From Acidimicrobiales bacterium (GTDB lineage: Bacteria > Actinomycetota > Acidimicrobiia > Acidimicrobiales > JAHWLA01): DNA of 64,000 nt. Below the pieces are notes generated by a model. That model worked only from the letters and a program-made list of their open reading frames with translations. It was not told the origin of the DNA and searched no databases. The position numbers and the translations under genes were made by a program. The stretch covers positions 15,044-79,043 of the forward strand of contig DATLNE010000020.1 in assembly GCA_035536915.1 (NCBI GenBank), written 5' to 3'. Numbering within the stretch: position 1 is the first letter of the stretch; each line of letters starts with the position of its first letter. Below are positions 15,315-58,155 of the stretch, piece after piece.

Positions 15315-15328
15315 TGACAACGTTGCCA
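15315..15328. promoter_or_regulatory. LacI-type operator copy a (TGACAACGTTGCCA)
   Basis: A 13/14 palindrome in the centre of the 60-bp divergent gap between starts 15299 (-) and 15360 (+). It shares the 17-nt string TGTAATTGACAACGTTG with copy c. Confidence 0.65.
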
Positions 15329-15359
15329 TTCAGGCCGTCGTCCGGCCTAGGCTTTGTCC

Positions 15360-16181
15360 GTGACCACTAAGTGCCTGGCCCTGTGGAGCGTCCGGAACCA
15401 CCTCGCTGCCGACCTCGAAGGAACCATCGCCAAGGTCGCGGCCCTCGGCTTCGAAGGGGTGGAACCGCTGTGCCATGCCGGCAAGTCGGTGCCACTGCCG
15501 CCGCCGATCGGGCCGATGATCGACGCTGCACCTGTTGTGGACCCTCACCACCTTCGGCGGGTGCTCGACGACCACGGGCTCGTGGTGACCAGCGCCCACA
15601 CCTTCCTGCCCGAAGGCGCGTACGCCGACGCGGTGCTCGACGAACAAGAGGTGCTCGGCAACCAGCTGCTCGTGCTCACGGCTCCCTTCTTCGTCCCCGG
15701 CTTCGACCTCGAGGCCATCACCACCTCCGACGGGGTGAAGCGCCTTGCCGACCGGATCAACGCCGCCGTCGAGGTGACGGCGGCGCGCGGCATGCGAATC
15801 GGCTACCACAACCACACATGGGAGATGGAGACGACAATCGAGGGTCGCACCGCCTACGACCTCCTCTTCTCCATGCTCGACCCCGCTGTCTTCGCCGAGG
15901 TCGACCTGTACTGGGCCACCTTGGGCGGCGCCGACCCGACGGCGGTGATCGAGTCGCTCGACGCGCGGACGCTGCTGCTCCACCTCAAGGACGGCCCGGC
16001 AGAACCAGGACTGCCGCAAACCCCCCTCGGCACGGGAACGGTCGACCTGCGCTCCGCGCTTCGGGCGGCGACCCATGCGGTCGCCCACATCGTGGAACTG
16101 GACGACGCCGAGGGCGACGCCTTCGACGTTGTGGCCGCCGGCCTCCGTTATCTCCGTGACGAGGGCACTGTCGAGGTATGA
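15360..16181 (+). CDS. sugar phosphate isomerase/epimerase family protein (xylose-isomerase-like TIM barrel)
   Basis: LGFEGVE...; IGYHNHTWE and the DLYW/HLKD pattern are typical of the AP-endonuclease-2/xylose-isomerase-like fold. I prefer the GTG start at 15360 (TAGGCT-N6-GTG). The track TTG at 15354 is possible. Confidence 0.75.
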   Translation: MTTKCLALWSVRNHLAADLEGTIAKVAALGFEGVEPLCHAGKSVPLPPPIGPMIDAAPVVDPHHLRRVLDDHGLVVTSAHTFLPEGAYADAVLDEQEVLGNQLLVLTAPFFVPGFDLEAITTSDGVKRLADRINAAVEVTAARGMRIGYHNHTWEMETTIEGRTAYDLLFSMLDPAVFAEVDLYWATLGGADPTAVIESLDARTLLLHLKDGPAEPGLPQTPLGTGTVDLRSALRAATHAVAHIVELDDAEGDAFDVVAAGLRYLRDEGTVEV

Positions 16182-16987
16182 CCGAACCCTGCGTATCCCT
16201 CGACGTCGTCGCCGACGGCGTGACCCGCATCACCCTCGACCGGCCCACCACGCTGAACGCCATGACCGTCGACCTGGTCGTCGAACTGCACCGGGCCCTT
16301 GACCGCGTCGCCGCCGACGCCTCGTGCCGTGTCGTGATCCTCACCGGGGCGGGCCGCGGCTTCTGCTCGGGGCTCGACCTGAACGGCTTCGGGGTCGTGC
16401 CGGGCACGGAACAGCAAGGCGCAGTGCCCCGGAGCCTCGCCGTGCAGCAGGCCATCGCCGAGCTCGTGCCCCATCTGCGCCGCGTTCCCCAACCGGTGAT
16501 CGCCGCGGTGAACGGCCCGGCCGCCGGCGGGGGGTTCGCGTTGGTGCTCGGCTCCGACATCCGCCTCGCCGCTCGCTCGGCGACGTTCAGCGCCGCCTTC
16601 ATCCGAATCGGTGTCTCCGCCTGCGACATCGGTACCTCGTGGCTGCTTCCCCGCCTCATCGGCGCCGCTCGCGCCCAAGAGCTCATGCTCACCGGGCGGC
16701 TCTTCGAGGCCGAGGAGGCTGCCCGCATCGGGCTCGTGACCGATGTCGTCGACGACGACCGGCTGCTCGACCGTGCCCTCGCGCATGCCGAGCTCCTCAT
16801 GGCCAACGCGCCGATGGCCGTGCGGATGACCAAACGAGTGATGTGGTCGGCGCTGGAGGTTCCCGGCCAACAGGCCGCCCTCGACCTCGAGAACCACACG
16901 CAGGTGATGCTCCTGGCGACCGCGGACCACCACGAGGCGATCCGCGCCCGCCAGGAGCGCCGAGCTGCCGACTACGTCGACGGCTGA
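16178..16987 (+). CDS. enoyl-CoA hydratase/isomerase (crotonase family)
   Basis: ATGA overlap with the upstream gene. ITLDRPTTLNAM, GAGRGFCSGLDL and AAVNGPAAGGGFAL form the oxyanion-hole motifs. Confidence 0.9.
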   Translation: MTEPCVSLDVVADGVTRITLDRPTTLNAMTVDLVVELHRALDRVAADASCRVVILTGAGRGFCSGLDLNGFGVVPGTEQQGAVPRSLAVQQAIAELVPHLRRVPQPVIAAVNGPAAGGGFALVLGSDIRLAARSATFSAAFIRIGVSACDIGTSWLLPRLIGAARAQELMLTGRLFEAEEAARIGLVTDVVDDDRLLDRALAHAELLMANAPMAVRMTKRVMWSALEVPGQQAALDLENHTQVMLLATADHHEAIRARQERRAADYVDG

Positions 16988-17853
16988 GCGGCTGCCAGTC
17001 GGTCGAAGATGGGCTTGATGCCGCGAGCGAAGCCCACCGGGTCGGACCCGTACCCCAAGTGGTCGCCGGCGAGTTCCACGAACTCGATCCCCAGCTCGTC
17101 GGCCACAACCTTGCCCGTGCGGTTGTAGTACGCGTCACCGGTGTCGAGTCCGCCTGCGATAGCCATGGGTACGCGAGCGGCCCGCAGCGCCTCGTAGTCG
17201 GGTACGAAGCTTGAGATGGCCCGCATCTCGTAGCGCATGAAGAACTCGATGTTCGCCTGCATGCGCGCGACCAGCTCGGCAATCTCGGGGCCCAGCACCG
17301 GCACCGCTCCTGCGTCGGCTTCGCTTGTGTCGGCATCGCCTCCCGTCCGTGCCGTCGAACCCAGTCCTGCATGTTCCATGAACCGGATGTAGGCCTCCAT
17401 GACCTGGTCCTTCTCGAGCAATGCATCGAGTTCGTCGTGAAAGGCGAGCAACTCGGCAGCCTCGGGAAGGATGCGCAACACAGGTGCCTCATGGGCGACC
17501 AGCCCGACCACTCGACTCGGGTGTCGGGCCACGAGGTCGAAGCCGATGACCGCACCGGCGCTGCTGCCGAACGCGAGGGCGGCGTCGAAGCCGTTGGCGT
17601 CGAGGACCGCTACGGCATCCGCGCTCTGCTCCTCGGGCCGCAACGTCGTAGGAGGACCGTGCAGCGGGCTTCGCGAGTTGCCGCGCCGGTCGTAGGTGAG
17701 GACCGTGTAGTCGGCGGCCAGGACATCGGCGAGGAACGTGTAGACGCCCGCGTCGCCTCCCCCGCCGGAGATGAGCAGCAGGGCCGGGCCGTCGCCGCGC
17801 CGCTCGAAGTAGATGTCGGCCCCGTCGCTCTTGGCCAGGCCGGTCTCGATCAT
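16972..17853 (-). CDS. alpha/beta hydrolase
   Basis: (MA)MIETGLAKSDGADIYFERRGDGPALLLISGGGGD, with nucleophile elbow FGSSAGA. The ATG at 17853 makes an ATGA overlap with the PhyH stop. The ATG at 17859 is also possible. Confidence 0.85.
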   Translation of the reverse strand: MIETGLAKSDGADIYFERRGDGPALLLISGGGGDAGVYTFLADVLAADYTVLTYDRRGNSRSPLHGPPTTLRPEEQSADAVAVLDANGFDAALAFGSSAGAVIGFDLVARHPSRVVGLVAHEAPVLRILPEAAELLAFHDELDALLEKDQVMEAYIRFMEHAGLGSTARTGGDADTSEADAGAVPVLGPEIAELVARMQANIEFFMRYEMRAISSFVPDYEALRAARVPMAIAGGLDTGDAYYNRTGKVVADELGIEFVELAGDHLGYGSDPVGFARGIKPIFDRLAAAQPST

Positions 17854-18647
17854 CGCCATGCGTCCGCCCCCTTGAACGGGAAGTGCTCGCCTTCTACATA
17901 GGCGGGCTTCGGTTGGTACTCGTTGACCCCGGGGTCGCCGCGGAAGTGGAGGGCGCTCACGAACGGCCCGCCGTCGTCGGTCAGGATCTTGGTGCTCGTG
18001 GGGATGTACCGGATCGTCAGCCCGCAACGCCGCTTGGGCGAGTTGTTCGGCTTCGAGCTGTGGAGGATGTTCGGGTGGTGGACCTCGCAGTCACCGGGCT
18101 TCAGCTCGATGTCGACGGCGGTGCTCTCGTCGAACTCTGCCGTCGTCTCAGACTGGAACACGTTGTCGGTGTCCTGGCGGATCCGAAACTCGTGAGCCGG
18201 GAGTGTGTGCGAACCCGGAATCACCCGAAGGCACCCGTTCTCTGTCGTCGCCTCGTCCACCGCGAGCCAGATGCTGACGACCTCCATCGGCTCCAAGGGC
18301 CAGTAGGCGGCGTCCTGATGCCAGAGCACGGCTTGCCCGTCGAAAGGCGGCTTGGAGATGTAGTGCGACGCGAACAGCGCCAGGTCCGGGCCGACGAAGA
18401 GCTCGGCGATGTCGAGCAGCCGATCGTCGCTCACCAGCCGCACCCAGAACGGATCCTCCTTGACCAGCCATTGGCCGAGGTGTTCGGGCCGAACGTCGGG
18501 GTTGCGCGCTTGCACCCAGTCGATGTGTGCGGCGGCCTCAGCCATGAGGTCAGCGTCGAGCACGTTGCGGAAGATCGCATAGCCGTCGCGGTCGAACTTG
18601 GCGAGCGTGTCGTCTCGGGTGGTCGTGGGGGTCGACATGGAACTCAT
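17850..18647 (-). CDS. phytanoyl-CoA dioxygenase (PhyH) family Fe(II)/2-oxoglutarate dioxygenase
   Basis: The ATG at 18647 gives MSSMSTPTTTRDDTLAKFDRDGYAIFRNVL. The HxD facial triad (LWHQDAAYW) and the distal His (VHHPNILHSS) are present. The 892-aa track ORF is a spurious upstream extension. Confidence 0.85.
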   Translation of the reverse strand: MSSMSTPTTTRDDTLAKFDRDGYAIFRNVLDADLMAEAAAHIDWVQARNPDVRPEHLGQWLVKEDPFWVRLVSDDRLLDIAELFVGPDLALFASHYISKPPFDGQAVLWHQDAAYWPLEPMEVVSIWLAVDEATTENGCLRVIPGSHTLPAHEFRIRQDTDNVFQSETTAEFDESTAVDIELKPGDCEVHHPNILHSSKPNNSPKRRCGLTIRYIPTSTKILTDDGGPFVSALHFRGDPGVNEYQPKPAYVEGEHFPFKGADAWR

Positions 18648-18710
18648 CGTCACACGTCGCTGACGAGCCGGCTTCAACGGGTGCTGCACATAGTTGTACT
18701 GTTTTGACCT

Positions 18711-19565
18711 GTGTTGGTCCGCCTGGGCTTCACCGACGTGGCTGCGGGGAAGCCATACCATGCCGCTTTGGTGGTGATGGGTGGATCGCGTGAGTCCCGA
18801 GTCGACTCCCACACCCATCTCGATTTCTACGAGCTGATGGTGGTCGTGGCCGGTAGCGGCACGCATCGCGCCGGGACCGATGTCTACGCATTGGAACAGG
18901 GCGATGTCGTCGTCGTACGCCCGCACGACGTGCACACGATCCTTGCCCCTCCCAACGGCAACCTGCACTTTGTGAACATCGCGATTCCAGCGGCCACATG
19001 GTCGAGCGTGCTCGCCGTCGGGGGCCTCCCGGCGTCGCTCTGGGACCGGGAGCGCAGTCCCGTGCACGTGCGGCTCGGCGCGGGCGACGTCGCGACAGCG
19101 GTGGCCGCCGCATTGGAAGCAGTCGGCCAGTACCACGCCCGACCTGACCCGCTTGACGTGCTCCGCCTGTTGGGAACCGTGCTCCCGGCTCTCGTACACC
19201 GTCCGGACGATCGCGGGCCGATCGCACCCGACTGGCTGGTACGAGCCTGCGCGGCAATGGAACAACCGGACGAGATGCGCGTCGGCGTGCCTCGGTTCGT
19301 CGATCTCGCAGGCGTGAGCCATGCCCACCTCGACCGCTCGATGCGAACGCACTTCGGCACCACGCCCACCGACTTCGTCAACGAGTTGCGCCTCCAACGC
19401 GCGGCCCGACTGCTCGTCACCACGGCAGTCCCCGTGGGCACCATCGCCACCGAATGCGGCTTCAGCACGATCTCGTACTTCTGTCGGCGGTTCCGGGAGC
19501 GCTTCGGCCGGTCGGCTCGTGACTTCCGAAACGAAACCCGTCGGGCCGCTGCGCCCGGCGTCTGA
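18711..19565 (+). CDS. AraC-family transcriptional regulator (cupin sensor + HTH)
   Basis: N-terminal cupin-like domain (HTHLDFYELMVVVAGSGTH). C-terminal double HTH (AGVSHAHLDRSMRTHFG...IATECGFSTISYFCRRFRERFG). It is divergent from the PhyH gene. Confidence 0.9.
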   Translation: MLVRLGFTDVAAGKPYHAALVVMGGSRESRVDSHTHLDFYELMVVVAGSGTHRAGTDVYALEQGDVVVVRPHDVHTILAPPNGNLHFVNIAIPAATWSSVLAVGGLPASLWDRERSPVHVRLGAGDVATAVAAALEAVGQYHARPDPLDVLRLLGTVLPALVHRPDDRGPIAPDWLVRACAAMEQPDEMRVGVPRFVDLAGVSHAHLDRSMRTHFGTTPTDFVNELRLQRAARLLVTTAVPVGTIATECGFSTISYFCRRFRERFGRSARDFRNETRRAAAPGV

Positions 19566-19573: not shown

Positions 19574-19587
19574 TGACAACGTTAGAC
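19574..19587. promoter_or_regulatory. operator-like half-palindrome copy b (TGACAACGTTAGAC)
   Basis: The left half is identical to the full sites. The right half is degenerate but shared with copy g (AGAC). It lies in the 27-nt gap between the AraC stop and the ADH start. Confidence 0.5.
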
Positions 19588-19592: not shown

Positions 19593-20618
19593 GTGGTGCG
19601 AGCTCTCCGTCTTCTGGGCGACAAACACCTCGACGTCTACGAGGTACCCGACCCGGAGCCCGGTCCTGCCGACGTCGTCGTCCGGCTGACCCGTGCTGCC
19701 GTGTGTGGCACCGACATCCACCTCTACCGCGCCCCTGCCGACATCGTGCCGCCCGTCGTCCCCGGCCACGAACCGGTCGGTGTCGTCGAGCATGCGGGGG
19801 ACGCCGCGCCCGTTGCGCTGCTCGGCACCCGGGTGCTGGTCGCAGGCGTCGTGGGGTGCGGCGGGTGCGCGATGTGCCGATCGGGCGTCAACAACGCGTG
19901 CGCCCAGGCCGTGGCGATGGGCCTCAGCCGTGACGGCGCCGATGCGACCCATGTGGTCGTCCCGTGGACGAACGTGGTGGCCCTCCCCGACGAGCTGTCG
20001 TGCGACGCAGCCGCCGTGCTCACGTGTGCGGGTGGCACGGCGTACACCGTGATGCGCGAATGCGGCGTCACCGGTGAGGACCAAGTCGCCGTGCTCGGGC
20101 TGGGCCCCGTCGGGCTCAGTCTTGTCATCCTCGCCACATCGATGGGCGCCACCGTCGTGGGGTCCGACCCGGTGGCAGCACGGCGCCGACAGGCGCTCGA
20201 CCTGGGGGCCGCAGCCGTGGTCGACCCCAGCACGGGCGACGCCGCCGAGCTGCTTCAAGCGGCCACCAGTGGCCGCGGCTACGACGTCGTGGCCGAGTGC
20301 GTGGGCCGAGCCGAGACGCAGAAGCTCGCCTTGGCTGTGGTCGCCATGCGGGGGCGGGTGGCGATGGCGGGATTGGGGGACGAGCCCGTCACCGTCAACT
20401 GGATGCGTGACGTCTTGGCGCGACACGCCCGCGTCGTCGGCATCTCCGCCACGCCGATCGCCTACTTCCCCGCACTGGTCGAGCGCGCCGCCCGGCTGCG
20501 GCTGCCGTTCGAGCGGCTGGTGACGCACCGTTTCCCGTTGGAGCAGGCCGTCGAGGCCTTCGCGGTCATGGAGTCGGGCGACTGCGGCAAGGTCGTCTTC
20601 GACTTCGCCTGCAGTTAG
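19593..20618 (+). CDS. zinc-dependent alcohol dehydrogenase (MDR family)
   Basis: Zinc ligand motifs CGTDIH and GHEPVGVV, the structural-zinc Cys cluster (GCGGCAMCRSGVNNAC) and the Rossmann motif LGLGPVGL are present. Start is the GTG at 19593 or 19596. Confidence 0.9.
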   Translation: MVRALRLLGDKHLDVYEVPDPEPGPADVVVRLTRAAVCGTDIHLYRAPADIVPPVVPGHEPVGVVEHAGDAAPVALLGTRVLVAGVVGCGGCAMCRSGVNNACAQAVAMGLSRDGADATHVVVPWTNVVALPDELSCDAAAVLTCAGGTAYTVMRECGVTGEDQVAVLGLGPVGLSLVILATSMGATVVGSDPVAARRRQALDLGAAAVVDPSTGDAAELLQAATSGRGYDVVAECVGRAETQKLALAVVAMRGRVAMAGLGDEPVTVNWMRDVLARHARVVGISATPIAYFPALVERAARLRLPFERLVTHRFPLEQAVEAFAVMESGDCGKVVFDFACS

Positions 20619-21985: not shown

Positions 21986-22762
21986 TCAGGCGCCGAAGAC
22001 GGGAGCCCGCTTTTCGACGAAGGCTCGCAGCCCCTCCTCGAAGTCGGGGCCCTGCATGCACTTCACCTGGGTGGCGAGCTCCATCTCCACCACCGCCTCC
22101 AACTTGTCGACCTCGACAGCGCGGTACAGCGTTTCCTTCGTCTTGCGCAGTGCCAACGGCGCGACCCGGAGCATGTCGTCGATCAAAGGTTGGGCCGTCA
22201 TCTCCAGATCCGCGTCGGGAACCACGTCGGAGACGAGGCCCAGTCGCAGCGCGCGGGAAGCATCGATAAACCGACCCGTGAACATCAGTTCTGCCGCCAC
22301 CGACATGCCGAGCTCACGCGGCAGGAAGTAGCTCATGCCGAGCTCGCAGCCGGACACGCCGAGCGTGACGAAGGCGTCGTTCATCCGGGCCGACTCACCG
22401 GCGATGCGGATGTCGGCGGCGAGAGCCAGGGCGAAGCCCCCGCCACATGCCGCCCCGTGCACCAAGGCGATCACCGGCTGGGGCAACCGTCGGAGGCCGA
22501 CGACGATCTCGGCCAGTCTCTCGGCGAGGCCGTCGTCGTTGCCCTCCATGCGTGCGCCGATGTCGAGGCCGGCGCAAAAGGCGCGACCCGCCCCTCGAAG
22601 CACGACGACGCGCACAGACGTGTCGGTCCGTAGGGCCTCGACTCGTCCTGCCAGCTCCCGGCCGAAGGTGCCGTCCATGGCGTTCAGTCGCGTCGGCCGA
22701 TTGAACGTGATCCACTCGACTGCCCCTCGCCGCTCGACGACAAGCGTCTCGTACTCGGTCAC
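21986..22762 (-). CDS. enoyl-CoA hydratase/isomerase (crotonase family)
   Basis: The GTG at 22762 (GTGA overlap with the upstream stop) gives VTEYETLVVERRGAVEWITFNRPTRLNAM. GAGRAFCAGLD and HGAACGGGFALA are present. Confidence 0.9.
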   Translation of the reverse strand: MTEYETLVVERRGAVEWITFNRPTRLNAMDGTFGRELAGRVEALRTDTSVRVVVLRGAGRAFCAGLDIGARMEGNDDGLAERLAEIVVGLRRLPQPVIALVHGAACGGGFALALAADIRIAGESARMNDAFVTLGVSGCELGMSYFLPRELGMSVAAELMFTGRFIDASRALRLGLVSDVVPDADLEMTAQPLIDDMLRVAPLALRKTKETLYRAVEVDKLEAVVEMELATQVKCMQGPDFEEGLRAFVEKRAPVFGA

Positions 22763-23583
22763 GCGTCGGCCTTTCTCGGCGCCAGGTACCCGGGGTCGAT
22801 CAGTTGCCCGTGGACGACGAGGTTGTGCGTGTGGCAGAGCTGGTGCAGAGCAAACGCGGTTTGCATGGCGCTCGGCCGCCCTTGGGCGTCCTGTGCGGCA
22901 TTGACCGCCTCTTTCGCCGTCTTGAGGGCGAAGAGCGGCTTGGCTGCGATGCGCGACGCAAGGGCGAGGGTGAATGCCGGCAGCTCTTGGCGCGGCACGA
23001 CGTGGTTGACCATCCCGACGCGCAACGCATCGGCCGCCGTCAGCTCGTCGGAGGTGAAGAGCATCTCTTTGGCCTTCCGGGCCCCGACCTCCCACGGATG
23101 GTGGAAGAACTCCGCACCGGCGACGCCCATCGCCACGGTGTTGTCGGCAAAGGTGGCGTCGTCCGAAGCCACCACGAGGTCGCACGGCCATACGAGCATG
23201 AGGCCGCCCGCGATCACCTTGCCGTGCACCTGGGCAATGGTCGGCTTGGGCAGGTTGCGCCAGCGCTCGGAGAACCCGAGGTAGATCTCCTTCTCGATCC
23301 CCATCCGCCCCTCGGCCCCGGCGCAACCAAAGCCGCACCACGTCCCCACGGTGCGGTGTTCTCCGATGACGGCGACCGGGTCCTCGTACAGGTCATGGCC
23401 TGCCGAGAAGTGCGGTCCGTTGGCGGCGAGGATCACCACCCGCACGTCGTCGTCGGCCGCGGCGCGGTCGAACGCCGCGTTCAGGTCGTAGAGCAACTGC
23501 ACGTTCTGGGCGTTGCGCACCTCGGGGCGGTCGAGCGTCAGACGAGCAACTCCGTCAGCCGGCGTGTCGTAGACGACGGTCAT
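22759..23583 (-). CDS. enoyl-CoA hydratase/isomerase family protein
   Basis: The ATG at 23583 gives MTVVYDTPADGVARLTLDRPEVRNAQN. NGPHFSAGHDL and VHGKVIAGGLML are present. 1-nt TGATG junction with the upstream SDR. Confidence 0.85.
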   Translation of the reverse strand: MTVVYDTPADGVARLTLDRPEVRNAQNVQLLYDLNAAFDRAAADDDVRVVILAANGPHFSAGHDLYEDPVAVIGEHRTVGTWCGFGCAGAEGRMGIEKEIYLGFSERWRNLPKPTIAQVHGKVIAGGLMLVWPCDLVVASDDATFADNTVAMGVAGAEFFHHPWEVGARKAKEMLFTSDELTAADALRVGMVNHVVPRQELPAFTLALASRIAAKPLFALKTAKEAVNAAQDAQGRPSAMQTAFALHQLCHTHNLVVHGQLIDPGYLAPRKADA

Positions 23584-24560: not shown

Positions 24561-24584
24561 CGCGTACAGGAGGGTTCTCCCCCT

Positions 24585-29840: not shown

Positions 29841-29843
29841 GCG

Positions 29844-47700: not shown

Positions 47701-47714
47701 AGACAACGTTGTCA
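47701..47714. promoter_or_regulatory. LacI-type operator copy e (AGACAACGTTGTCA)
   Basis: It lies in the divergent gap between the aldolase start (47679, -) and the LacI gene (+). It is identical to copy d. Confidence 0.7.
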
Positions 47715-49746: not shown

Positions 49747-49753
49747 TTGCTGT

Positions 49754-51964
49754 TCAGCTCGGCAGGCCTGCGGAGGCGCCTTGGAGGAACACCGAACGGA
49801 GCAGGTCGTCGCGACCCAACAGCTCCTTGGCGTCGCCGTCGAAGCGAACCGAGCCCTTCTCCATGAAGTAGGCGTGGTCGACGAGCGACAGCGCGATGTT
49901 CACGCTCTGCTCCACGAGCACGATCGCCGTGCCCTGGGCGTTGATCTGCCGAACCATCTCCAGCAGCTCGCCCACGACCTTGGGGGCCAGGCCCAGCGAC
50001 AACTCGTCGATCAGGAGCAGACGGGGCCGCACCATGAACGCTTTCCCCAACGCGATCATCTGGTTCTCGCCGCCCGACATCTGCGCCGCCGGTTGGTTGC
50101 GCCGTTCGGCCAGGCGGGGGAACGCCTCGAACACCACGTCGATTCCCGCGTCGATTGCTTTGCGGTCGCGACCGAGCGAGTAGCCCGCGGCCCGGAGGTT
50201 CTCCACCACGGTGAGGCCGGGGAACGTCGCCCGTCCCCCCGCGATCTGCTTCAGGCCGAGCGAGACGCGGCGCTGCGGGTCGAGGAAGGTGATGTCGGCG
50301 CCGAGGTAACGCACCGAGCCGCGACTCGGGAGGCCCAGCCCGGAGATGACACGGAGCAAGGTCGACTTCCCCGCGCCGTTGGTGCCGAGCAGCGCCACCA
50401 TCTCGCCCTCGTCGACCGTGAACGAGACGTCGAACAGCACCTGTACTTGGTCATAGGCAAAGTCGATGTGCCGGCAGGCGAGCATCGGCAACGTGGTCCC
50501 CGACTGCACCAGGGCGCGGATCTCCTCCTCTTCGATGATCTCGCCGACCATCCGGTCGAGGTCGTCGTTGACGGTGCGCGCCGCCCGGTGCAGCACCAGG
50601 CCCGCCGCGATGCCGGGCACGGCCAGCGAGAGGATCGCGCCCGCCGAGCCGTACCGGCGGTCGACGCCGCTGAGCAACAAGATGCCCATCGTGCCGCCGA
50701 CACCCGCCAGCGCAATGCCCGCCAGTGCGGCGAGGTGCGGTCGCATGTGGGCGGGCACGACGGAGAACATCGCCATGTGCAGGATCGGCAGGATGACCGA
50801 GGTCATGGCCAGCGCAACTGCGAACAGCACGACCATCACGGCGAAGACGGGCGTGAAGATCGCTACCGCAAGGGTGGTGATGCCGATGCCCAGGAGGGTT
50901 CCCGCCAGTCGCACCAGTCGCCCGGGATCCTGACGGAACAGCATCTCGTCGCGCTTGCCGAAGGCGGCCAGCGCCACCACGCCACAGAGCGACGTGGCCG
51001 CGGAGAAGACCGACCGGCTGCCGGGGCCCATCCCCCACTCCTCCTGGAGGAAGAACGCCAGGTAGGTGACGAACGGCACGATGAGCATGCCGAGCACGGC
51101 GTTGGCCACCAGGATCTTGCGCACCGTCGGGATGAGCAGCACACGCTGGGCGATCTCGAAGAAGCCGAGCTTCACCTGGGAGTCGTCGACCTCGGCGCGC
51201 GCCGCCCCTTTGCCCCGCACCACGTCGCGCACCCGCTCCGTGTCGAACCGGCCGAAGCCCGGGTCGCGCAGCCGCGTCGCGAACAAGGCCACGAGGATGC
51301 AGACAACGCCTTGGGCGACGAACACCCCGCGCCACGTCCAGCCCAGGATCGCCGTGCACAGCCCGATGAGGAGGGGGGCCGCGACCTGGCCTGCCGCCTG
51401 AGCCCCGCGGTAGAAGGCCATTACCCGCACACGGATGGGTGGCGGATAGCTGTCGAGGAGCAACGGCTCGTGCACCGCCTGGACGGACGCCGAACTGGCT
51501 CCGTCGAGGACCATGACGAGGAACAGTCCCCAGAGGGTGACGACGAAGCCGGTGCCGAGCGTCATCACGCTCCAGGCAAAAGCGGTCACGATGCAGATGG
51601 CAGCCCTTCGCGGGTGGCGCTGCACAAGCGAGGCGACGGGCAGCGTGGCCAGGGTCAGCACGAGCGTCTTGACGAGCACGATGCCGGCGAGAGCGCTGCG
51701 GGGCATGCCGAGCGACGCGGTGATCTCCGGGCCCAGCACGACCACCGAATTACTCTGGAACTGGTCGACCGTGAGCAAGAGGCCGAGCGAGACCATCGGG
51801 TACCAGCCCACGCCCGACTCGGCGAGCGCTCGTCGCAGCGGCGGTGCCTCGCTGTCGCCGGTGACGCCGACGGCCGCCCGTCCTTTGACCTGCAGCTCGG
51901 CCCGTGCCGACTCCACCGCCTCGACGGCGTCGTCGGTCTCCCGAGTTGTCTGCCGGGTTCCCAT
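49754..51964 (-). CDS. fusion protein: MFS-type 12-TM domain + LivF-type (HAAT family) ABC ATPase domain
   Basis: 736 aa. Residues ~50-480 form about 12 hydrophobic spans with MFS-like loops (LDSYPPPIRVRVMAFYRG). Residues ~497-736 carry Walker A GTNGAGKSTLL, signature MSGGENQM, Walker B LLLIDELSLGLAP and a LivF-like tail. Confidence 0.85.
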   Translation of the reverse strand: MGTRQTTRETDDAVEAVESARAELQVKGRAAVGVTGDSEAPPLRRALAESGVGWYPMVSLGLLLTVDQFQSNSVVVLGPEITASLGMPRSALAGIVLVKTLVLTLATLPVASLVQRHPRRAAICIVTAFAWSVMTLGTGFVVTLWGLFLVMVLDGASSASVQAVHEPLLLDSYPPPIRVRVMAFYRGAQAAGQVAAPLLIGLCTAILGWTWRGVFVAQGVVCILVALFATRLRDPGFGRFDTERVRDVVRGKGAARAEVDDSQVKLGFFEIAQRVLLIPTVRKILVANAVLGMLIVPFVTYLAFFLQEEWGMGPGSRSVFSAATSLCGVVALAAFGKRDEMLFRQDPGRLVRLAGTLLGIGITTLAVAIFTPVFAVMVVLFAVALAMTSVILPILHMAMFSVVPAHMRPHLAALAGIALAGVGGTMGILLLSGVDRRYGSAGAILSLAVPGIAAGLVLHRAARTVNDDLDRMVGEIIEEEEIRALVQSGTTLPMLACRHIDFAYDQVQVLFDVSFTVDEGEMVALLGTNGAGKSTLLRVISGLGLPSRGSVRYLGADITFLDPQRRVSLGLKQIAGGRATFPGLTVVENLRAAGYSLGRDRKAIDAGIDVVFEAFPRLAERRNQPAAQMSGGENQMIALGKAFMVRPRLLLIDELSLGLAPKVVGELLEMVRQINAQGTAIVLVEQSVNIALSLVDHAYFMEKGSVRFDGDAKELLGRDDLLRSVFLQGASAGLPS

Positions 51965-52440
51965 CAGTCTTCACGCTCCACGGTGAACTCACGCACAAAC
52001 GCCGCCTCGCCCACCCGACGTCCCTCGTGATCAAGTAGCACGATGACGACCTCGTGACGGTCGGCCTGTCGATTGCCGGCGCGACGGTCGGCCAGTTCCT
52101 CGATGCGGACGCTCGTGCTCTCGGTGACGTACACGCGCTTGGTGGCCAGCCACGCTGCATCGGGGCAGTCGGGCCGGCGTCGACAAAGCTCGTCGTCGTG
52201 GGGAACGAGCGATCGCAGGTCCTGACCCGGGCGAATCGGCGCGCGGTCGACGAAGACGCCGAACATCCCGTCGAAGTCCTCGGCCTCCCACGAGATCTCG
52301 ACAGGCAGCGTCACCGCCGCTTCGTGCGCCGGCTCTAAGAACTTGACCCGGTTGTCGGCGACGAAGTCGAGGTTCGACGTCGAACAGGCCGTCAACCACG
52401 CGCACGCCAGCAGCGCTGCGCTCCACCGAACCCGGCTCAT
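51964..52440 (-). CDS. lipoprotein of unknown function
   Basis: The ATG at 52440 (ATGA overlap) gives MSRVRWSAALLACAWLTACSTSN, with lipobox L-T-A-C. 158 aa. I recognise no family. Confidence 0.65.
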   Translation of the reverse strand: MSRVRWSAALLACAWLTACSTSNLDFVADNRVKFLEPAHEAAVTLPVEISWEAEDFDGMFGVFVDRAPIRPGQDLRSLVPHDDELCRRRPDCPDAAWLATKRVYVTESTSVRIEELADRRAGNRQADRHEVVIVLLDHEGRRVGEAAFVREFTVERED

Positions 52441-53975
52441 GCCGGCCTGGTCCACGGCGTGGCCCGCACCATGCACCGGCAGAGTGTGTCGAACTTGCCG
52501 ACGGCGTAGTGGCTGGCGCCCGTGTGGCGCCCGTCGGCGAAGTCGGTGCCGAACACGCGTGGGGCCTGCCAGGCTCGGAGGGAACGTACGCCCGCCGCGA
52601 ACCTGGCCAGGTCGGCGCCGCCCCCCGCCGCGATTGCGTCGGTCCACAGGAAGAAGTGCTCGCAGGCGGTCTTCGTGCCGGTGCTCTGGTTGTTGGGGTT
52701 GTAGTAGTCCGCTCCCCGGAGCCGGGTCATCGTGTCGAGGCACCGCCGAAGGCCGGGTGCCAGGCGGTTGCGGTCCGTGTACGGCGACCGGTTGGCCGGG
52801 TTCCTCGTGTTGTCCTCGACGATGCAACCGTCGGGGTCGTTGCACACCGACACCGCCACCATGCCCTTGAGCTGGGTGTCGTGCATCGTCTGACCTGTCG
52901 TGGCCGTCGCTGCCAGGGTGTAGTAGTCGTTCACCGCGTAGCGATAGGTCGACTCCTGCGTCTGCGCCTGCTGTGTGAACGAGGCGAACTGGAGGTAGTT
53001 GCCGATGAAGATCACATGGGTGACGCCGGCCGAGGCGAACGTCGATTCCGCGTTCCTAATGCCGTCCTGGTCGTTTATTCCGGCGCGTGCCACCGCGGCA
53101 ACCGGCGTGCCCGCAGCCCGCAGCGAGGGTTCGAGGATGTTGCGGTAGGGCCCGTCCACCCGAGGCGTCTGGTCGAGGAAGACCCCGACCTTCGCCCCTG
53201 CGAGGTACCCGACCTCCTTGAGCTTGGGCGCCAGCGCCCTGAACTGGCTGTCGATCGTCGGGAACGTGGTCGTCACGTACGGCCGCGCCTTGAGGAGCGT
53301 CTCCTCCGCCAACGTCGAAGACAAGGTGATGATCGGCACCCGGTTGCGGGCGAAGCACTCCTGCCCGCCCGGCCCGTACACGTAGGTGTCGAGCACGTAG
53401 TGGGCCTTGAAGTCCTGAGCGATCTGGCTGCAGCGGCGGACCTGGCTGTCCTCGCTCATGAACTCGGCGAAGCTGAACTCGAACCCTCGGTACTCGATGC
53501 GGCGTCCCCCGATGCCGCCCTTGGCGTTGAGGTCGTCGAAGAGCGCCTTGAACTCCCGGTCCATCTTTGTCGAGTCTGTGGTCGGGTCCACGCCGCCGAC
53601 GGAGGCGCCGAGGCCCGCGAGGTTCACGTACGTGTAAGCCACGCGGATCGGGCCGGTCTCCGATGTGGCGCCACCGGGTCCCTGGGGGCCGCCACGCTGT
53701 GTCCCGCCGGGGCCGTTCGTGCTGGTGCCCCCGGTCCTCGCGCCTGGGCCCACCGCCCCAGGACCGCTTCCGTCCACCCCGGGGGCGCCGGGTTCGCCGA
53801 TCCCGTCGGGCCCCACCGCGCCGTCGCCTCCGAAACCGAGCTCCCCGCCGTCGCCGATGCCTCCCGCGGCAACGCCCGACAACTCGTCGTTGCGGATCGC
53901 CGACGTGACGCCGATGAGCGTGGCCAGGCTCAGCAGCGCCACGACCAATGAAAGAGCACGCTGCTTTGTCCTCAT
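52437..53975 (-). CDS. membrane-anchored putative solute-binding protein (type I periplasmic-binding-protein-like) with a long Gly/Pro-rich tether
   Basis: N-terminal TM span (ALSLVVALLSLATLIGV), then about 85 aa of low-complexity G/P sequence (53624..53879), then a ~390-aa alpha/beta-looking domain. The binding-protein role is inferred mostly from operon context. Confidence 0.5.
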   Translation of the reverse strand: MRTKQRALSLVVALLSLATLIGVTSAIRNDELSGVAAGGIGDGGELGFGGDGAVGPDGIGEPGAPGVDGSGPGAVGPGARTGGTSTNGPGGTQRGGPQGPGGATSETGPIRVAYTYVNLAGLGASVGGVDPTTDSTKMDREFKALFDDLNAKGGIGGRRIEYRGFEFSFAEFMSEDSQVRRCSQIAQDFKAHYVLDTYVYGPGGQECFARNRVPIITLSSTLAEETLLKARPYVTTTFPTIDSQFRALAPKLKEVGYLAGAKVGVFLDQTPRVDGPYRNILEPSLRAAGTPVAAVARAGINDQDGIRNAESTFASAGVTHVIFIGNYLQFASFTQQAQTQESTYRYAVNDYYTLAATATTGQTMHDTQLKGMVAVSVCNDPDGCIVEDNTRNPANRSPYTDRNRLAPGLRRCLDTMTRLRGADYYNPNNQSTGTKTACEHFFLWTDAIAAGGGADLARFAAGVRSLRAWQAPRVFGTDFADGRHTGASHYAVGKFDTLCRCMVRATPWTRPA

Positions 53976-54889
53976 GGCGTTGCCTCCTCTTCGTAGATCC
54001 GTCGCCGGAGGCGGGGCACGCCTCCGGACAGCAACCAGGCACCGAGTGCCGCGGTGCCGATACCAGCCGCAACGACCGCCCGGCCCACGCCGTCCGTCCC
54101 GATGCCGACGATGCGCCGCGGCCCCGCCGATCGATACGACGTCGGCGCCAGGGGGGTCCCGCTCGGCCCCGACGGCGCAGCGCCGTCAGCGGCACCAGTC
54201 GGCCCGAGGGTCGCCGACAGGTCGCCGTCGCCGCCGACCACCGTCGGACCGGGGAACAGCAGGGTCGTGGTAGTCGACGTCGACGTCGTCGTCGGCGTGC
54301 CCGCGACCAATGCCTGCTCGTCAGGACGCTCGAAGGCGATAGCGAACACGGCGGTGTCGCCTTCCACCGGCAACACGGCGATCTCCACTGCGTCGCCTTC
54401 GAGCGTGGCGAACGCTCCGATGTCGGGTATGGCAAAGACGACTTGGTCCGTGCTTACCGTGCCGTCGACGGGCTTTTCGCAGGCGACAGCCGGGCGCGTG
54501 GTCCACGATGCGTTGGCACCGGAATCCCACCCGCTGCGCAACGGACAGGCCACGACGCGGGACTGGGGCGGAGCGACCGAGTCGGCGACAGGGAGCGTCA
54601 GGGTGGCGGCGCCGGAAGCGGCTTCGAACCGCAAAGCCGACATGGCGCGAGCGCCCGTTGCATCGTTCTCCACGTACAAGCCCCCCTCGGGGACGGCCAG
54701 CGTCGGCCTCCGCGATTCGGGCGGGACTGTCACCAACGGCACGGGGAGGCCGGTGTCGACGACAGCCCGATGCCACCACGCAACGGTGACGGGGCTGGCG
54801 CCAGATGCGCTCCACGGCAGCGCGAGGGCGCCGACGCTGGCGAGGAAAGCGGCGGTGAACCCCAGCCGTCGGCGTTGTCGTTCGATCAC
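53972..54889 (-). CDS. exported, C-terminally membrane-anchored protein of unknown function
   Basis: The GTG at 54889 (GTGA overlap). Signal peptide (FTAAFLASVGALALPWSASGA), Thr/Ser-rich linker (TPTTTSTSTTTT), C-terminal TM span (AVVAAGIGTAALGAWLL) and a basic tail. Confidence 0.6.
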   Translation of the reverse strand: MIERQRRRLGFTAAFLASVGALALPWSASGASPVTVAWWHRAVVDTGLPVPLVTVPPESRRPTLAVPEGGLYVENDATGARAMSALRFEAASGAATLTLPVADSVAPPQSRVVACPLRSGWDSGANASWTTRPAVACEKPVDGTVSTDQVVFAIPDIGAFATLEGDAVEIAVLPVEGDTAVFAIAFERPDEQALVAGTPTTTSTSTTTTLLFPGPTVVGGDGDLSATLGPTGAADGAAPSGPSGTPLAPTSYRSAGPRRIVGIGTDGVGRAVVAAGIGTAALGAWLLSGGVPRLRRRIYEEEATP

Positions 54890-57879
54890 GTCTCACTCCT
54901 CGGGACAGCAGCCACTCGCGTGCGCTTCGGCCGTGGCGTAGGCCCACCGTTGGACGCCGAGGGCCTCTCCTCGAGGACGGCGCCCGATCGCTCCACGGCG
55001 CGGCGGTCGGTGCCGAGGTAGCTGGCGACGACGGCGGGATCCTGGATGACAGCCTGCGGCTCACCGGCGGCGATCACACGACCGGTCTCCATGGCGACGA
55101 TCTCGTCGCTGATGCCGAGCAACAACGGCATGTCGTGCTCGATCACCACGAACGTGGTGTCGAGCATCGACTTGAGGCGGCTCAGCAGCCCCCCGAGCGC
55201 CTCCGTCTCCCGCTGCGCGACACCGGAGGACGGCTCGTCGAGCAACACAAGTCGGGGGCGGAGGGCGATGATGGAGGCCAGGTCAGCGATTCGACGGGTG
55301 CCGGTGGACAGCTCGCCAACGGCCTTGTCCGCGTAGGCGCCGAGGCCCATCGTGTCGATGAGCTCGTCGGCACGGAGCGCCTTGCGTTCCTCCGCCTCGA
55401 CGGCAGAAGGCCAGGAGGTCAGCGTCGACAGCAGCCCCGTCGGGGCAATCCGCTCGCAGGCCAGGCGGAGGGTCTCCCTCACCGTGAGGGTGGGGAACAG
55501 CCGAGCGTCTTGGAAGGAGCGAACGAGCCCGAGCGCGGCCCGTTGCTCCGGGGCCGCCTTCGTGACGTCGACGCCGCCGAACAGCACAGTCCCAGCGTCG
55601 GCGGGCGTGAACCCCCCGATGAGCTCGAAAAGCGTCGTCTTCCCTGCCCCGTTGGCGCCGATGATCCCGACCGTCTGTCCGGCGCGGACGGTGATCGACA
55701 CTTGGTCGACGGCATGGATGCCGCCGAACGATTTCGACAGGGCTTTGGTCTCCAGCAGCGGGACGATGTCGGTCGCAACCGCGCGGGGGGCGACCTGCGC
55801 GCGTGCCGGGATGCCGGCGGCCGCGGAACTGATCTGCGTGACGGCATCGGTCTCCGGTGCCGGTGCTTCCAGCGGGACCGGTCCGGCCAGCCGTCCGAGG
55901 AGGCGGTCGCGCAGCGGCTTTACCGCTTGTGCCAATCCTCCCGGGAAGTACAGGAGCAGGATCATCCAGCCGAACGTCGACACCGCGAGGCCCACGGCGT
56001 CGAGGTCCACCAGCGCAGGCAATGCGGTGAGGTACAGCGCCCCCAGCAGCGGGCCGACCATGATCGCCAGTCCCCCGATGAGGGCGATGGCGACCGCGGT
56101 GATGCTCCGCGAAGCGGCGAAGGTGTCCGGGTTGAGGCGCGGCAGGGCATGGGCGTAGACCGCGCCACCGAGCCCGGCCAGGAACCCGGCGAACGCGAAG
56201 GCCTCCAGCTTTCGACGGGTGGACGGCACGGCAAAGGCGCGTGCCCCGTCCTCGTTGTCGCGCAGGCCGCGGAGCGCCCGGGCGTAGCCGCCGCGGTTGA
56301 GGTTCCGCACGAGCCACAGCGCCCCGGCCAGGAACGGGAGCGTGAACACGAAGTACCCGCGCGCCGTCGGCACCCGTTCGTCGATGAAGACGAGCTGCGC
56401 CGGGTCCAGCCCGAGCCCGACCGCCCAAGGCTGAGGCATCACCCATGCCTGGATGGCGACGGCAAAGCTCAGGGTGGTCACGCCGAGCATGAGCCCGCGG
56501 ATGCGCAGGGCCGGGATACCGATCAGCACGCACACCAATGAGCCCGCAAGGCCGCCCACCAGGAAGCCCACAGGAAAGCTGCGGAAGACCTCGTTCACAA
56601 AGTGCACCGAGACCACGGCCCCCACGGCGGCCACCGCGAACTGCCCGAGCGAAAGCTCCCCGCCCATGCCGGTGATCACGTAGATCGACAGGCCCACGAT
56701 GGTGAATGCCACGACGAGGGTGAAGGCGAAGGCCGCCTGGTTCGAGCTGAGGGCCACAGCAAGAAAGAGCGCCGTCGCCAGGCCCATCGACGCGGGCGTC
56801 ACCGCGCGGACCGCAGGAATCCGACGCCACGCCGCCGGGAGCGCGGGCCACGGCCGGGCCGTCGCCCAGTCCTCAGCGCGGCGAGCTCGGCCGCTGTCGC
56901 GGCTCTGCAGGACGAGCACGACCAGGAGGATGACGAAGAGGATGACCTCGGTGGGACCGCTTCCGTCCGTGTTGAACCGCCCGACTTGGTCGATGATGCC
57001 GACGACCACGCCGAAGGCCAACGCCACCGGCAGGCTTCGCAGGCGGGCCACGATCGCCGGGAGGAGCGCACGAACGAGCAGGGCCGGGCCGAGGGAGGCT
57101 CCTCCGATCATGAAGCCCTTTTCGGGGAACTGGAGCACTGCCACCAAGGCGGAGGCCGCACCGGCGAGGCCCCACGCCACCGACGACATCCGGTTGGCGG
57201 GGATGGCGTCCAGCAGTGCCGCATCGCGGTTCTCGGCAGAGGCGCGAAGGGCGACCCCGAAGCGGGTGCGGCTCAGGAACAACGCCAGCGCAACGACGAC
57301 AAGAGGCGTGAGCACGAGCATTGCCGTGTACTCGGGCGTCACCCGGAGCGTGCCCACGGTGAAGGCCGGAAACCACGGCGGGCGCGGGTAGAGCGCTCCG
57401 TTGCGGATCTTCGTGTTCACCGCGCTCGACACCAGCAGGAAGAACTCGGCCGCGCCGAGGGTCATGACCAAGCTCATCACCCGAGGCACCTTGCGGAGCC
57501 GGCGCACGGCAATGACCTCGACGCTCATGTTCGCCGCCGCCCCCACGGCCATGGCCACGGGGAACATCAACCAGTACGGAATGCCCAACCCGCCGAGGTT
57601 CCCGCCGACCACCCAGATTCCGAAAAACGAGGCGGCGAGGGTGCCGACCTCGGCGTGAGCGAAGTTGAGGACGCCGCTCGTGCGGTGGACAAGGACGAGC
57701 CCGACGGCGAGCAGCCCGTACGTGAGCCCGACGATCACGCCCAGCACCACAACGGCGAGGGGCACGCTGAAGTCGTCGACCAGGACGGCCCCGCCGAGGA
57801 ACAGCGTGAGGAGGGTGACCCCCGCGAAGGCCAGCGGTTCCCGCTGCGCCCGGATCGCGTACAAGAGGCCGGCGCTCAC
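54886..57879 (-). CDS. triple fusion: LivH-like permease + LivM-like permease + LivG-like ABC ATPase (HAAT family)
   Basis: Two successive branched-chain-type permease domains, a linker, then an ATPase (LLETKALSKSFGGIHAVDQVS, Walker A GANGAGKTT, signature LSTGTRR, Walker B LVLLDEPSSGV). I chose the GTG start at 57879. The track start at 57999 is possible. Confidence 0.85.
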   Translation of the reverse strand: MSAGLLYAIRAQREPLAFAGVTLLTLFLGGAVLVDDFSVPLAVVVLGVIVGLTYGLLAVGLVLVHRTSGVLNFAHAEVGTLAASFFGIWVVGGNLGGLGIPYWLMFPVAMAVGAAANMSVEVIAVRRLRKVPRVMSLVMTLGAAEFFLLVSSAVNTKIRNGALYPRPPWFPAFTVGTLRVTPEYTAMLVLTPLVVVALALFLSRTRFGVALRASAENRDAALLDAIPANRMSSVAWGLAGAASALVAVLQFPEKGFMIGGASLGPALLVRALLPAIVARLRSLPVALAFGVVVGIIDQVGRFNTDGSGPTEVILFVILLVVLVLQSRDSGRARRAEDWATARPWPALPAAWRRIPAVRAVTPASMGLATALFLAVALSSNQAAFAFTLVVAFTIVGLSIYVITGMGGELSLGQFAVAAVGAVVSVHFVNEVFRSFPVGFLVGGLAGSLVCVLIGIPALRIRGLMLGVTTLSFAVAIQAWVMPQPWAVGLGLDPAQLVFIDERVPTARGYFVFTLPFLAGALWLVRNLNRGGYARALRGLRDNEDGARAFAVPSTRRKLEAFAFAGFLAGLGGAVYAHALPRLNPDTFAASRSITAVAIALIGGLAIMVGPLLGALYLTALPALVDLDAVGLAVSTFGWMILLLYFPGGLAQAVKPLRDRLLGRLAGPVPLEAPAPETDAVTQISSAAAGIPARAQVAPRAVATDIVPLLETKALSKSFGGIHAVDQVSITVRAGQTVGIIGANGAGKTTLFELIGGFTPADAGTVLFGGVDVTKAAPEQRAALGLVRSFQDARLFPTLTVRETLRLACERIAPTGLLSTLTSWPSAVEAEERKALRADELIDTMGLGAYADKAVGELSTGTRRIADLASIIALRPRLVLLDEPSSGVAQRETEALGGLLSRLKSMLDTTFVVIEHDMPLLLGISDEIVAMETGRVIAAGEPQAVIQDPAVVASYLGTDRRAVERSGAVLEERPSASNGGPTPRPKRTRVAAVPRSET

Positions 57880-58049
57880 TGCGGTGGCGCGCCCACGACT
57901 GGGGGTGCAACCAGCTGCGTCCGGGGAGATCTCGCCATCGTCGGTCCTGTGTCTGGAGGTCGGTGGTCGTCGTCTGCAACTCCCGGGCGTCCCGCACACC
58001 GAGACCGACCGTCGGGCCGAATGCCCGCTCCCCCAGCCGTGTGTTGCTC

Positions 58050-58063
58050 TGACAACGTTGTCT
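58050..58063. promoter_or_regulatory. LacI-type operator copy f (TGACAACGTTGTCT)
   Basis: It lies in the ~200-320 bp divergent gap between the ABC operon (-) and the oxidoreductase/esterase operon (+). Confidence 0.65.
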
Positions 58064-58141
58064 TTCTGTGCTTAGCGTATGGCCGGCCACCACCCGTGTC
58101 AATGGACTCTTCACCAGGTTTTCTGTTTGGGTCAGAACTAT

Positions 58142-58155
58142 TGACAACGTAAGAC
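58142..58155. promoter_or_regulatory. operator-like half-palindrome copy g (TGACAACGTAAGAC)
   Basis: It lies 43 nt upstream of the GTG at 58198. The left half is perfect and the right half is the same variant (AGAC) as copy b. Confidence 0.5.

Follow-up and report, generated by a model that had tools for sequence, protein, structure and literature searches.

We analyzed a 64,000-nucleotide stretch of DNA from an Acidimicrobiales bacterium (GenBank assembly GCA_035536915.1, contig DATLNE010000020.1, positions 15,044 to 79,043; hereafter the window, in which position 1 is the first letter). The gene at 47812–48816 very probably encodes a LacI/GalR-family repressor, with a CG-centred palindrome as its predicted cognate operator, that would govern a mannose/mannoside regulon through five operators. 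As part of this reading, and with the confidence that attaches to it as a whole, the acyl-CoA genes behind some of these operators would be lineage-specific recruits into an otherwise conventional mannose/mannoside regulon. An earlier note, made from the letters of the sequence, had proposed seven copies of a 14-bp palindrome as operators of a dispersed LacI-type regulon. All seven strings are present at the positions it gave; five of them (a, c, d, e and f; 21.4–27.8 bits) stand as operators, whereas two (b and g; 8.1 and 2.1 bits) turned out to be half-sites. The regulon is indeed dispersed, across at least five promoter regions.

Genes in the window (69.6% GC) were mapped by codon statistics and then confirmed by Pfam; on this map, 5.4% of the window is non-coding. 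The regulator gene is as follows:

47812–48816, plus strand, LacI-family repressor gene, 334 aa, with Pfam LacI HTH and Peripla_BP_1/3/4 domains

The protein combines an N-terminal helix-turn-helix (HTH) domain (PF00356) with a periplasmic-binding-like effector domain (PF00532/PF13377/PF13407). Its relatives in the PDB are CcpA, RbsR and PurR (E about 1e-43 to 1e-31), and it is 100% identical to P0001, a protein annotated as a LacI family regulator in an Acidimicrobiales metagenome-assembled genome (MAG). A tblastn search of the window found no second LacI gene, in agreement with the earlier claim that the only one adjoins copy e. When the regulator was aligned with 19 homologues, the residues of the HTH and of the hinge helix were invariant among all 20 orthologues, including the hinge leucine L51 (ARGLRS). 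By eye, L51 aligns with PurR L54, the hinge leucine that intercalates at the central CpG of the operator.

The five operators are given below with their scores in a scan of the window with a position weight matrix (PWM), which was built from 75 non-redundant sites, all from other genomes and none from the window:

47701–47714, operator e, AGACAACGTTGTCA, common to the divergent aldolase operon and LacI gene, 98 bp upstream of the LacI start, 27.8 bits
45678–45691, operator d, AGACAACGTTGTCA, between the GFO2 stop and the GH2 start, 25.7 bits
38128–38141, operator c, TGACAACGTTGTCG, upstream of the PfkB/mannose isomerase/LLM operon, 25.8 bits
15315–15328, operator a, TGACAACGTTGCCA, between the divergent SnoaL-ACS1 and TIM-ECH1 operons, 21.4 bits
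58050–58063, operator f, TGACAACGTTGTCT, in the divergent region between the HAAT-type importer and the oxidoreductase/esterase operon, 25.7 bits

Each of these sites lies one mismatch from TGACAACGTTGTCA, which has eight matches at up to three mismatches in the window compared to 1.5 expected; none of 100 shuffles reached eight. The next-best PWM matches in the window, at 33087 (14.6 bits) and 14011 (12.4 bits), are both coding, and the claim that no full copy lies inside a coding sequence thereby held when intergenic and coding matches were compared. All five sites are intergenic, an outcome with a chance probability of ~5e-7 given the non-coding share, although a public call of the aldolase gene (290 aa, start 47715) would place site e within its first codons. 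Half-sites b and g are intergenic as well, as had been claimed for every copy, and the only overlap of site d with coding sequence is the 3-nt stop codon of the upstream Gfo/Idh/MocA gene, GFO2. All six copies of the hexamer AACGTT in the window fall within sites a–f; by our estimate, about four would be expected from base composition. In the PWM, the 12-bp core GACAACGTTGTC is nearly invariant with CG at its center, T/A stands at positions 1 and 14 in ~60% of sites, and the base just outside these shows a weak T/A preference. The operator thus has the form of an even CG-centred palindrome, (T/A)GACAACGTTGTC(A/N).

This form and placement fit the norms of the family, in which operators are even palindromes with a central CG, 72% of regulators are autoregulated, most sites lie 30–140 bp upstream of starts, and <1% lie in coding sequence (PMC4052901). 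Operator f is 51–171 bp from the importer start on one side and 135 bp from the start at 58198 on the other, upstream in each case, and both distances are within the usual range for the family (PMC4052901). Operator a lies 26–32 bp upstream of the start of the TIM-barrel gene. Operator c is found in a 33–42-bp gap past the stop codon of a gene for a UvrD-like superfamily 1 helicase (38155–40440, minus strand), a gene flanked on both sides by operator-controlled sugar operons of the same orientation.

The pairing of palindrome and regulator was examined in a set of 80 loci (1.46 Mb) from species-representative genomes, each with a LacI relative at 51–68% identity. The set includes Streptomyces, Kitasatospora, Actinoallomurus, Streptosporangium, Dactylosporangium, Acidimicrobiia, Solirubrobacteraceae, Ktedonobacteraceae, Anaerolineaceae and Dormiibacterota, and so reaches Chloroflexota. 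A site was counted if it carried the GACAACGTTGTC core with no more than one core mismatch, and the expectation was taken from shuffles. The loci hold 95 such sites, compared to 0.15 expected. Eighty of the 95 fall within 350 bp upstream of the LacI gene and cover 74 of the 80 loci, in which the distance from site to gene is 22–316 bp (median 137 bp). The palindrome stays with the LacI gene while the neighboring genes change by lineage, hence it is best understood as the cognate autoregulatory operator. This footprinting check bore out the proposal that the palindrome is a LacI/GalR-type operator of the adjacent regulator.

We considered whether the palindrome might instead be bound by another factor, either a LacI paralogue encoded elsewhere or a global regulator, with the adjacent LacI gene merely a target. 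LacI-family paralogues can have similar CG-centred motifs, the motif is, in our own comparison, one mismatch from the Firmicute cre consensus, and the stretch of this genome covered here is 64 kb only. However, the motif tracks the orthologous LacI in 74 of 80 genomes from several phyla while the neighbors change, and the HTH and hinge residues are invariant across the orthologues. Nor is the regulator a CcpA equivalog: it scores 161.9 bits with TIGR01481, for which the cutoff is 442, and its host belongs to Acidimicrobiales. We regard a different binding factor as very unlikely. Another explanation is that the copies belong to a dispersed repeat, resembling repetitive extragenic palindromes or miniature inverted-repeat transposable elements (REP/MITE), or that an AT-rich palindrome clustered by chance, since intergenic DNA is relatively AT-rich in a 70% GC genome and would favor AACGTT-like motifs outside genes. 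The 40-nt flanks of the copies are, however, only 20–40% identical in all pairs and both orientations; the copies are therefore not a repeat of this type, a finding that the earlier note had said would refute its reading had it turned out otherwise. Together with the shuffles and the excess of sites at the orthologue loci, this led us to rule out a repeat or chance origin, to which we assign next to no probability.

The two remaining copies are as follows:

19574–19587, half-site b, TGACAACGTTAGAC, doubtful as an operator, 8.1 bits, within the range of coding noise
58142–58155, half-site g, TGACAACGTAAGAC, doubtful as an operator, 2.1 bits, 43 bp upstream of the start at 58198

Both retain the left arm only, just as had been described, and 13 of 14 positions are identical between the two, which share TGACAACGTnAGAC. 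We rejected b and g as full operators on their PWM scores and because no variant of this type was found in the 80 orthologue loci. Nevertheless, both are intergenic and 5' of MDR-type dehydrogenase genes, and both keep the 9-mer TGACAACGT, of which ~0.15 copies per window would be expected by chance (an estimate from base composition); with their mutual agreement, this suggests that b and g are not random. We noted by eye that the deviant half of b, TAGACT, is a TANNNT hexamer resembling a –10 element, 7 nt before the GTG at 19596 of the zinc-dependent alcohol dehydrogenase gene. Half-site b may thus be a half-operator fused to a promoter element, a reading that g (TAAGAC) fits less well. The rightward operon can be assigned to the regulon without g, since the distance of operator f from each of the two divergent operons is a usual one. 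Directly upstream of b, in the region of 18711–19565 (plus strand) and 17850–18707 (minus strand), there is an AraC-type regulator, with a PhyH-family dioxygenase and an alpha/beta hydrolase next to it; this regulator might control the alcohol dehydrogenase gene (19596–20618) instead.

The transcription units adjoining the five operators are listed below, with families assigned by Pfam; the gene contents described previously were all confirmed.

45689–47679, minus strand, aldolase-GFO2 operon: DhnA/LsrF-type class I aldolase (46843–47679; DeoC) and a Gfo/Idh/MocA oxidoreductase, GFO2 (45689–46846; GFO_IDH_MocA)
40562–45654, minus strand, GH2 operon: glycoside hydrolase family 2 (GH2) beta-mannosidase (43129–45654), acyl-CoA synthetase ACS2 (41562–43118) and a Gfo/Idh/MocA oxidoreductase, GFO1 (40562–41551)
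35476–38112, minus strand, PfkB operon: PfkB sugar kinase, D-lyxose/D-mannose-family isomerase (36507–37082) and F420-dependent LLM oxidoreductase
12988–15299, minus strand, SnoaL-ACS1 operon: SnoaL_4 protein and a medium/short-chain-type acyl-CoA synthetase, ACS1 (SnoaL_4, AMP-binding)
15354–16987, plus strand, TIM-ECH1 operon: xylose-isomerase-like TIM barrel and enoyl-CoA hydratase ECH1 (AP_endonuc_2, ECH_1)
48847–57999, minus strand, HAAT (Liv/Urt)-type ABC importer operon: fusion of two permeases and an ATPase, Peripla_BP_6, fusion of MFS_1 and an ATPase, two unassigned open reading frames (ORFs) and a terminal Gfo/Idh/MocA gene (Pfam and NCBIfam)
58198–62121, plus strand, oxidoreductase/esterase operon: quinone-oxidoreductase-type MDR protein, PNPOx-like protein, carboxylesterase and Abhydrolase_3 esterase

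Closer assignments came from PDB and NCBIfam matches. The GH2 protein matches solved beta-mannosidases at E = 1e-109, and the isomerase matches PDB 7NZO (E = 1.6e-70) and 2Y0O (1.6e-65). The PDB relatives of the aldolase are LsrF/MJ0400 aldolases, and those of GFO2 are dehydrogenases of the scyllo-inositol/L-glucose or levoglucosan type. NCBIfam gave no equivalog-level name for any sugar or CoA enzyme; only the LLM oxidoreductase (TIGR03617, 481 bits) and ACS2, a long-chain acyl-CoA synthetase (PRK12406), pass subfamily cutoffs, and the best matches of ACS1 (MbcS, acetate-CoA ligase) are below theirs. The intergenic gaps in GH2-ACS2-GFO1 are 10 nt, and the TIM-barrel and ECH1 genes overlap by ATGA at 16178–16181; the 10-nt gap from GH2 to ACS2 and this overlap had both been read correctly before. 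The two importer fusions (49754–51964 and 54886–57999, both minus strand) join MFS_1 to a LivF-like ATPase in one ORF and two BPD_transp_2 domains to a LivG-like ATPase in another, and both have conserved counterparts (38% identity) next to the orthologous LacI gene in a further Acidimicrobiales MAG, at locus L001 (7567–9780 and 12779–15967). The oxidoreductase/esterase operon is possibly under operator f, and we treat it as a weak member of the regulon.

Elements resembling promoters adjoin several of the operators. A sigma-70 consensus scan found a promoter-like site on the minus strand at e, with a –35 element (ATGACA) within the operator and a –10 element (TACGAT) ending 7 nt before the ATG at 47679. 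Translated from this ATG, the aldolase has 278 residues, about the length of its homologues at two orthologue loci, L008 and L019 (276–277 aa). These lengths, together with the –10 element 7 nt upstream, favor a leaderless aldolase start at 47679 over the public start at 47715, which is probably too long. By eye, the minus strand past a reads AT, TACAGT, 7 nt and then the ATG at 15299. Past c it reads AT, TACAAT, 7 nt and then the GTG at 38112, a leaderless-type arrangement. At d, an abutting TATGGT (TANNNT) lies 17 nt before the GH2 ATG at 45654. The hexamers at a, c and d would be –10-like elements of the TANNNT type, placed as expected for leaderless or short-leader transcripts. Operators a and c have the flank TGTAAT in common because such hexamers adjoin both.

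From the sites, their intergenic placement, their conservation and the gene families, we infer the following mode of action, in which binding, repression, promoter positions and effector are all predicted. A dimeric repressor would bind the five operators, each of which would abut or overlap the –10 or –35 element of a leaderless or short-leader promoter. The bound dimer would occlude the –10/–35 region and so block RNA polymerase, that is, by classical steric repression. Through e, the repressor would control its own gene and the divergent aldolase-oxidoreductase operon; through d, the beta-mannosidase operon; through c, the kinase/mannose-isomerase operon; through a, the divergent SnoaL-ACS and TIM-ECH operons; and through f, the operon of the ABC importer as well as, probably, the oxidoreductase/esterase operon divergent from it. 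A sugar effector, most likely mannose, a manno-oligosaccharide or a mannoside, would release the repressor.

Judged from the content of the regulon, its sugar is most likely mannose. The beta-mannosidase, the mannose isomerase and the kinase make up a route from mannoside to mannose, then to fructose and to fructose phosphate. At L001, where the LacI is 68% identical to that of the window, the regulator is accompanied by Peripla_BP_6, a fused permease/ATPase and a GH38 alpha-mannosidase. At two further orthologue loci (L013 and L016), a GH92 alpha-mannosidase of 1,850 residues adjoins the regulator with two operators in between, and another (L054) has a gene of the GlcNAc-2-epimerase/mannose-isomerase family. 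A homologue of the ROK kinase that is divergent from the LacI gene at L020 is present at 54 of the 80 loci, mostly of the Streptomyces type, with a GH27 alpha-galactosidase beside it in 22 of the 54; the divergent orientation holds for most of the Streptomyces-type loci. The aldolase-GFO pair recurs with its own operator at L008 and L019, and it also lies near the LacI orthologue at L021 and L024, there without a motif site at the pair.

Several observations weigh against the mannose/mannoside reading or parts of it. The orthologue neighborhoods are heterogeneous, with ribose-type or CUT1 importers, GH27 enzymes or an FGGY kinase, and the effector may vary by lineage. The importer in the window is of the HAAT type (Peripla_BP_6), which is not usual for sugar import. 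Five operator-linked genes (ACS1, ECH1, SnoaL, ACS2 and LLM) have no evident role in mannose catabolism. On the side of the promoters, the sigma-70 scan found a promoter-like site at e only, with nothing at a, c or f, and the –10-like hexamers at a, c and d were identified only by eye.

Sugar enzymes and CoA-thioester enzymes are indeed mixed in operons that follow the operators, a feature that the earlier note had singled out as unusual. This coupling is real in gene order and is echoed at L162, a locus with a homologue of the TIM-barrel gene, and, in looser form, at L001, which has the closest LacI orthologue, but it is not shared by the homologues of GH2 or ACS2. Relatives of GH2 (up to 55% identity, at 80 metagenomic loci) had no ACS or GFO neighbor and no motif. 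The closest homologues of ACS2 (63–64%) are encoded in TetR-linked operons of Peripla_BP_6 or a Baeyer-Villiger monooxygenase followed by SDR, LLM and ACS genes, with no sugar genes. At two such loci (L167 and L168), the series of SDR, luciferase-like monooxygenase and acyl-CoA synthetase is preceded by Peripla_BP_6 in one case and by a Baeyer-Villiger-type FMO in the other. These contexts suggest that ACS2 originated outside sugar metabolism. Since the GH2 homologues lack ACS and GFO neighbors and the ACS2 homologues lack sugar genes, the GH2-ACS combination looks like a lineage-specific rearrangement rather than the mark of a conserved pathway, with ACS2 apparently moved into an operon for a mannosidase.

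At L162, the TIM-barrel homologue nearest to that of the window (48%) adjoins two AMP-binding genes, ECH, GFO, a zinc-dependent alcohol dehydrogenase and glycosidases. The same cluster (L162, 2838–16864) also holds GH127, a GHL6/fucosidase-like protein, an apiosidase, an aldo-keto reductase and Amidohydro_2, and looks like one for the catabolism of plant glycosides with a carboxylate aglycone. None of the five loci with TIM-barrel homologues (L162–L166) has a motif of the ManR type, and other regulators are used there. At L166, for instance, a different LacI gene is divergent from a GH3-TIM-GFO-MFS operon, and the intergenic region (5190–5525) holds two copies of a palindrome of the type ATTATAGCG(C/G)TA(T/C)AAAT, which is probably the operator of that LacI itself. 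We also noted a block of twelve genes at 21986–35399 (minus strand), which lies 76 bp downstream of the c operon in the same orientation and resembles a steroid or branched side-chain beta-oxidation cluster. It contains two crotonases, an SDR, a regulator of 920–997 aa with AAA_16 and GerE domains (LAL/LuxR), two acyl-CoA dehydrogenases, an Ltp2-like thiolase, a DUF35/ChsH2-OB protein, another SDR, a family III CoA-transferase and a MaoC pair. Its inclusion in the regulon would be speculative.

The mixed operons might form one pathway for a mannoside whose aglycone is hydrophobic or acylated (for example a glycolipid, an acylated mannoside, or a terpenoid or steroid glycoside), in which the regulator would coordinate deglycosylation, deacylation, uptake and CoA activation/beta-oxidation. 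Operators stand 5' of GH2-ACS2-GFO1, of SnoaL-ACS1 and of TIM-ECH1, the divergent unit at f has two esterases, and the importer belongs to the HAAT type, not to a sugar type. At L001, a single operator lies between the LacI-Peripla_BP_6-permease/ATPase-GH38 side and a divergent operon that starts with an MFS/ATPase fusion and continues with SnoaL, P450, SDR and LLM genes. Two Acidimicrobiales genomes thus place a mannosidase, this unusual HAAT importer and hydrophobic-compound enzymes beneath the regulator. The gene content around the closest TIM-barrel homologue and the nearness of the steroid-side-chain-like block to the c operon point in the same direction. Against this, the GH2 and ACS2 homologues occur apart from each other as described, a majority of the 80 orthologue loci have no more than ordinary sugar genes, none of the enzymes passes an equivalog cutoff for a function specific to lipids or steroids, and the beta-oxidation block has no operator of its own and a LuxR-type regulator of its own. 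A glycoside with a hydrophobic aglycone is therefore a possible substrate, as had been suggested from the gene content, and we hold the single pathway to be a minority possibility, clearly less probable than recruitment of the acyl-CoA genes into a conventional mannose/mannoside regulon.

Somewhat more doubtful still is a fuller version, in which a ManR-type repressor of Acidimicrobiales has been extended to the catabolism of a mannosylated hydrophobic compound, and in which b and g would be weak auxiliary operators fused to –10 boxes. Candidate compounds in this version would be an acylated mannoside or glycolipid (biosurfactants like mannosylerythritol lipids, or envelope mannolipids) or a terpenoid or steroid mannoside. 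The compound would be imported by the HAAT system, deacylated by the esterases and demannosylated by GH2 (by GH38 in the relative). The mannose would then pass through the isomerase and kinase, and the aglycone through the acyl-CoA synthetases, the crotonase and possibly the beta-oxidation block. On the preferred reading of a mannose/mannoside regulon with recruited acyl-CoA genes, the sugar/acyl-CoA coupling would be a lineage-specific expansion whose meaning is uncertain.

The regulator resembles the local sugar repressors of the LacI/GalR family (PurR, RbsR, GalR, CcpA) in its domain architecture, the even CG-centred palindrome, autoregulation and promoter-proximal sites, and in having genes for a glycosidase, a kinase, an isomerase and an ABC importer under its operators. 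By contrast, it has five operator regions within 43 kb, which is large for a local LacI regulator, several of its targets encode enzymes for CoA thioesters or hydrophobic compounds, and its importer is of the HAAT rather than the CUT1/CUT2 type. Among LacI groups with an assigned pathway, 96% control carbohydrate metabolism, and comparative genomics has predicted five 'ManR' orthologous groups for mannose and mannosides (PMC4052901). The window regulator shares with these groups the LacI family and the predicted mannose/mannoside pathway, whereas the ManR groups are non-orthologous sets from other taxa (PMC4052901). The targets in the window include the GH2 beta-mannosidase and the D-lyxose/D-mannose isomerase, and the orthologue loci add the GH38, GH92 and epimerase/isomerase genes mentioned above. 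The window LacI is thus a probable ManR-like mannose/mannoside regulator.

Clusters for the oxidative (3-keto) cleavage of glycosides (levoglucosan, C-glycoside and BT2158-type) pair a Gfo/Idh/MocA dehydrogenase with xylose-isomerase-like TIM-barrel enzymes. Similarly, the operator units of the window contain or adjoin four Gfo/Idh/MocA genes and one AP_endonuc_2 TIM barrel, and more distant TIM homologues occur in GFO-TIM-GFO and GH3-TIM-GFO clusters. However, the NCBIfam matches to levoglucosan dehydrogenase and glycoside 3-dehydrogenase are weak and far below cutoffs, and no lyase or hydratase could be assigned.

A closer counterpart may come from Streptomyces. SsManR of Streptomyces sp. 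SirexAA-E, whose locus is not among our 80, is reportedly a LacI-type repressor responsive to mannose and mannobiose (Ohashi et al. are said to have described it in 2021) whose 12-bp palindrome occurs at four sites, including two that precede genes for GH92 (alpha-1,2-mannosidase). This palindrome may well be the GACAACGTTGTC core. The comparison would fit the orthologues with this core that adjoin GH92 at L013 and L016, and the window regulon with its beta-mannosidase and mannose isomerase. Compared with SsManR as reported, the window regulon adds the aldolase/GFO operon, the acyl-CoA synthetases, the crotonase, SnoaL and the HAAT importer, and it is without secreted mannanases and GH92. A text search of the available literature for the motif string returned only unrelated primers, and one for the name SsManR returned no match. 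Possibly, the window regulator is the Acidimicrobiales counterpart of an already characterized Streptomyces regulator.

Taken alone, this is a sound and largely ordinary regulon that changes nothing known about LacI-type regulation. Its value is that an operator can now be paired, on good support, with its regulator for a LacI orthologous group found widely among soil Actinomycetota and also in Chloroflexota. A simple motif scan with this operator can predict mannose/mannoside regulons, including those of uncultivated Acidimicrobiia. The recruited acyl-CoA, esterase and HAAT-importer genes provide a small example of regulon expansion. If these genes do form one pathway, they would point to the catabolism of glycolipids or acylated mannosides, which is poorly charted.

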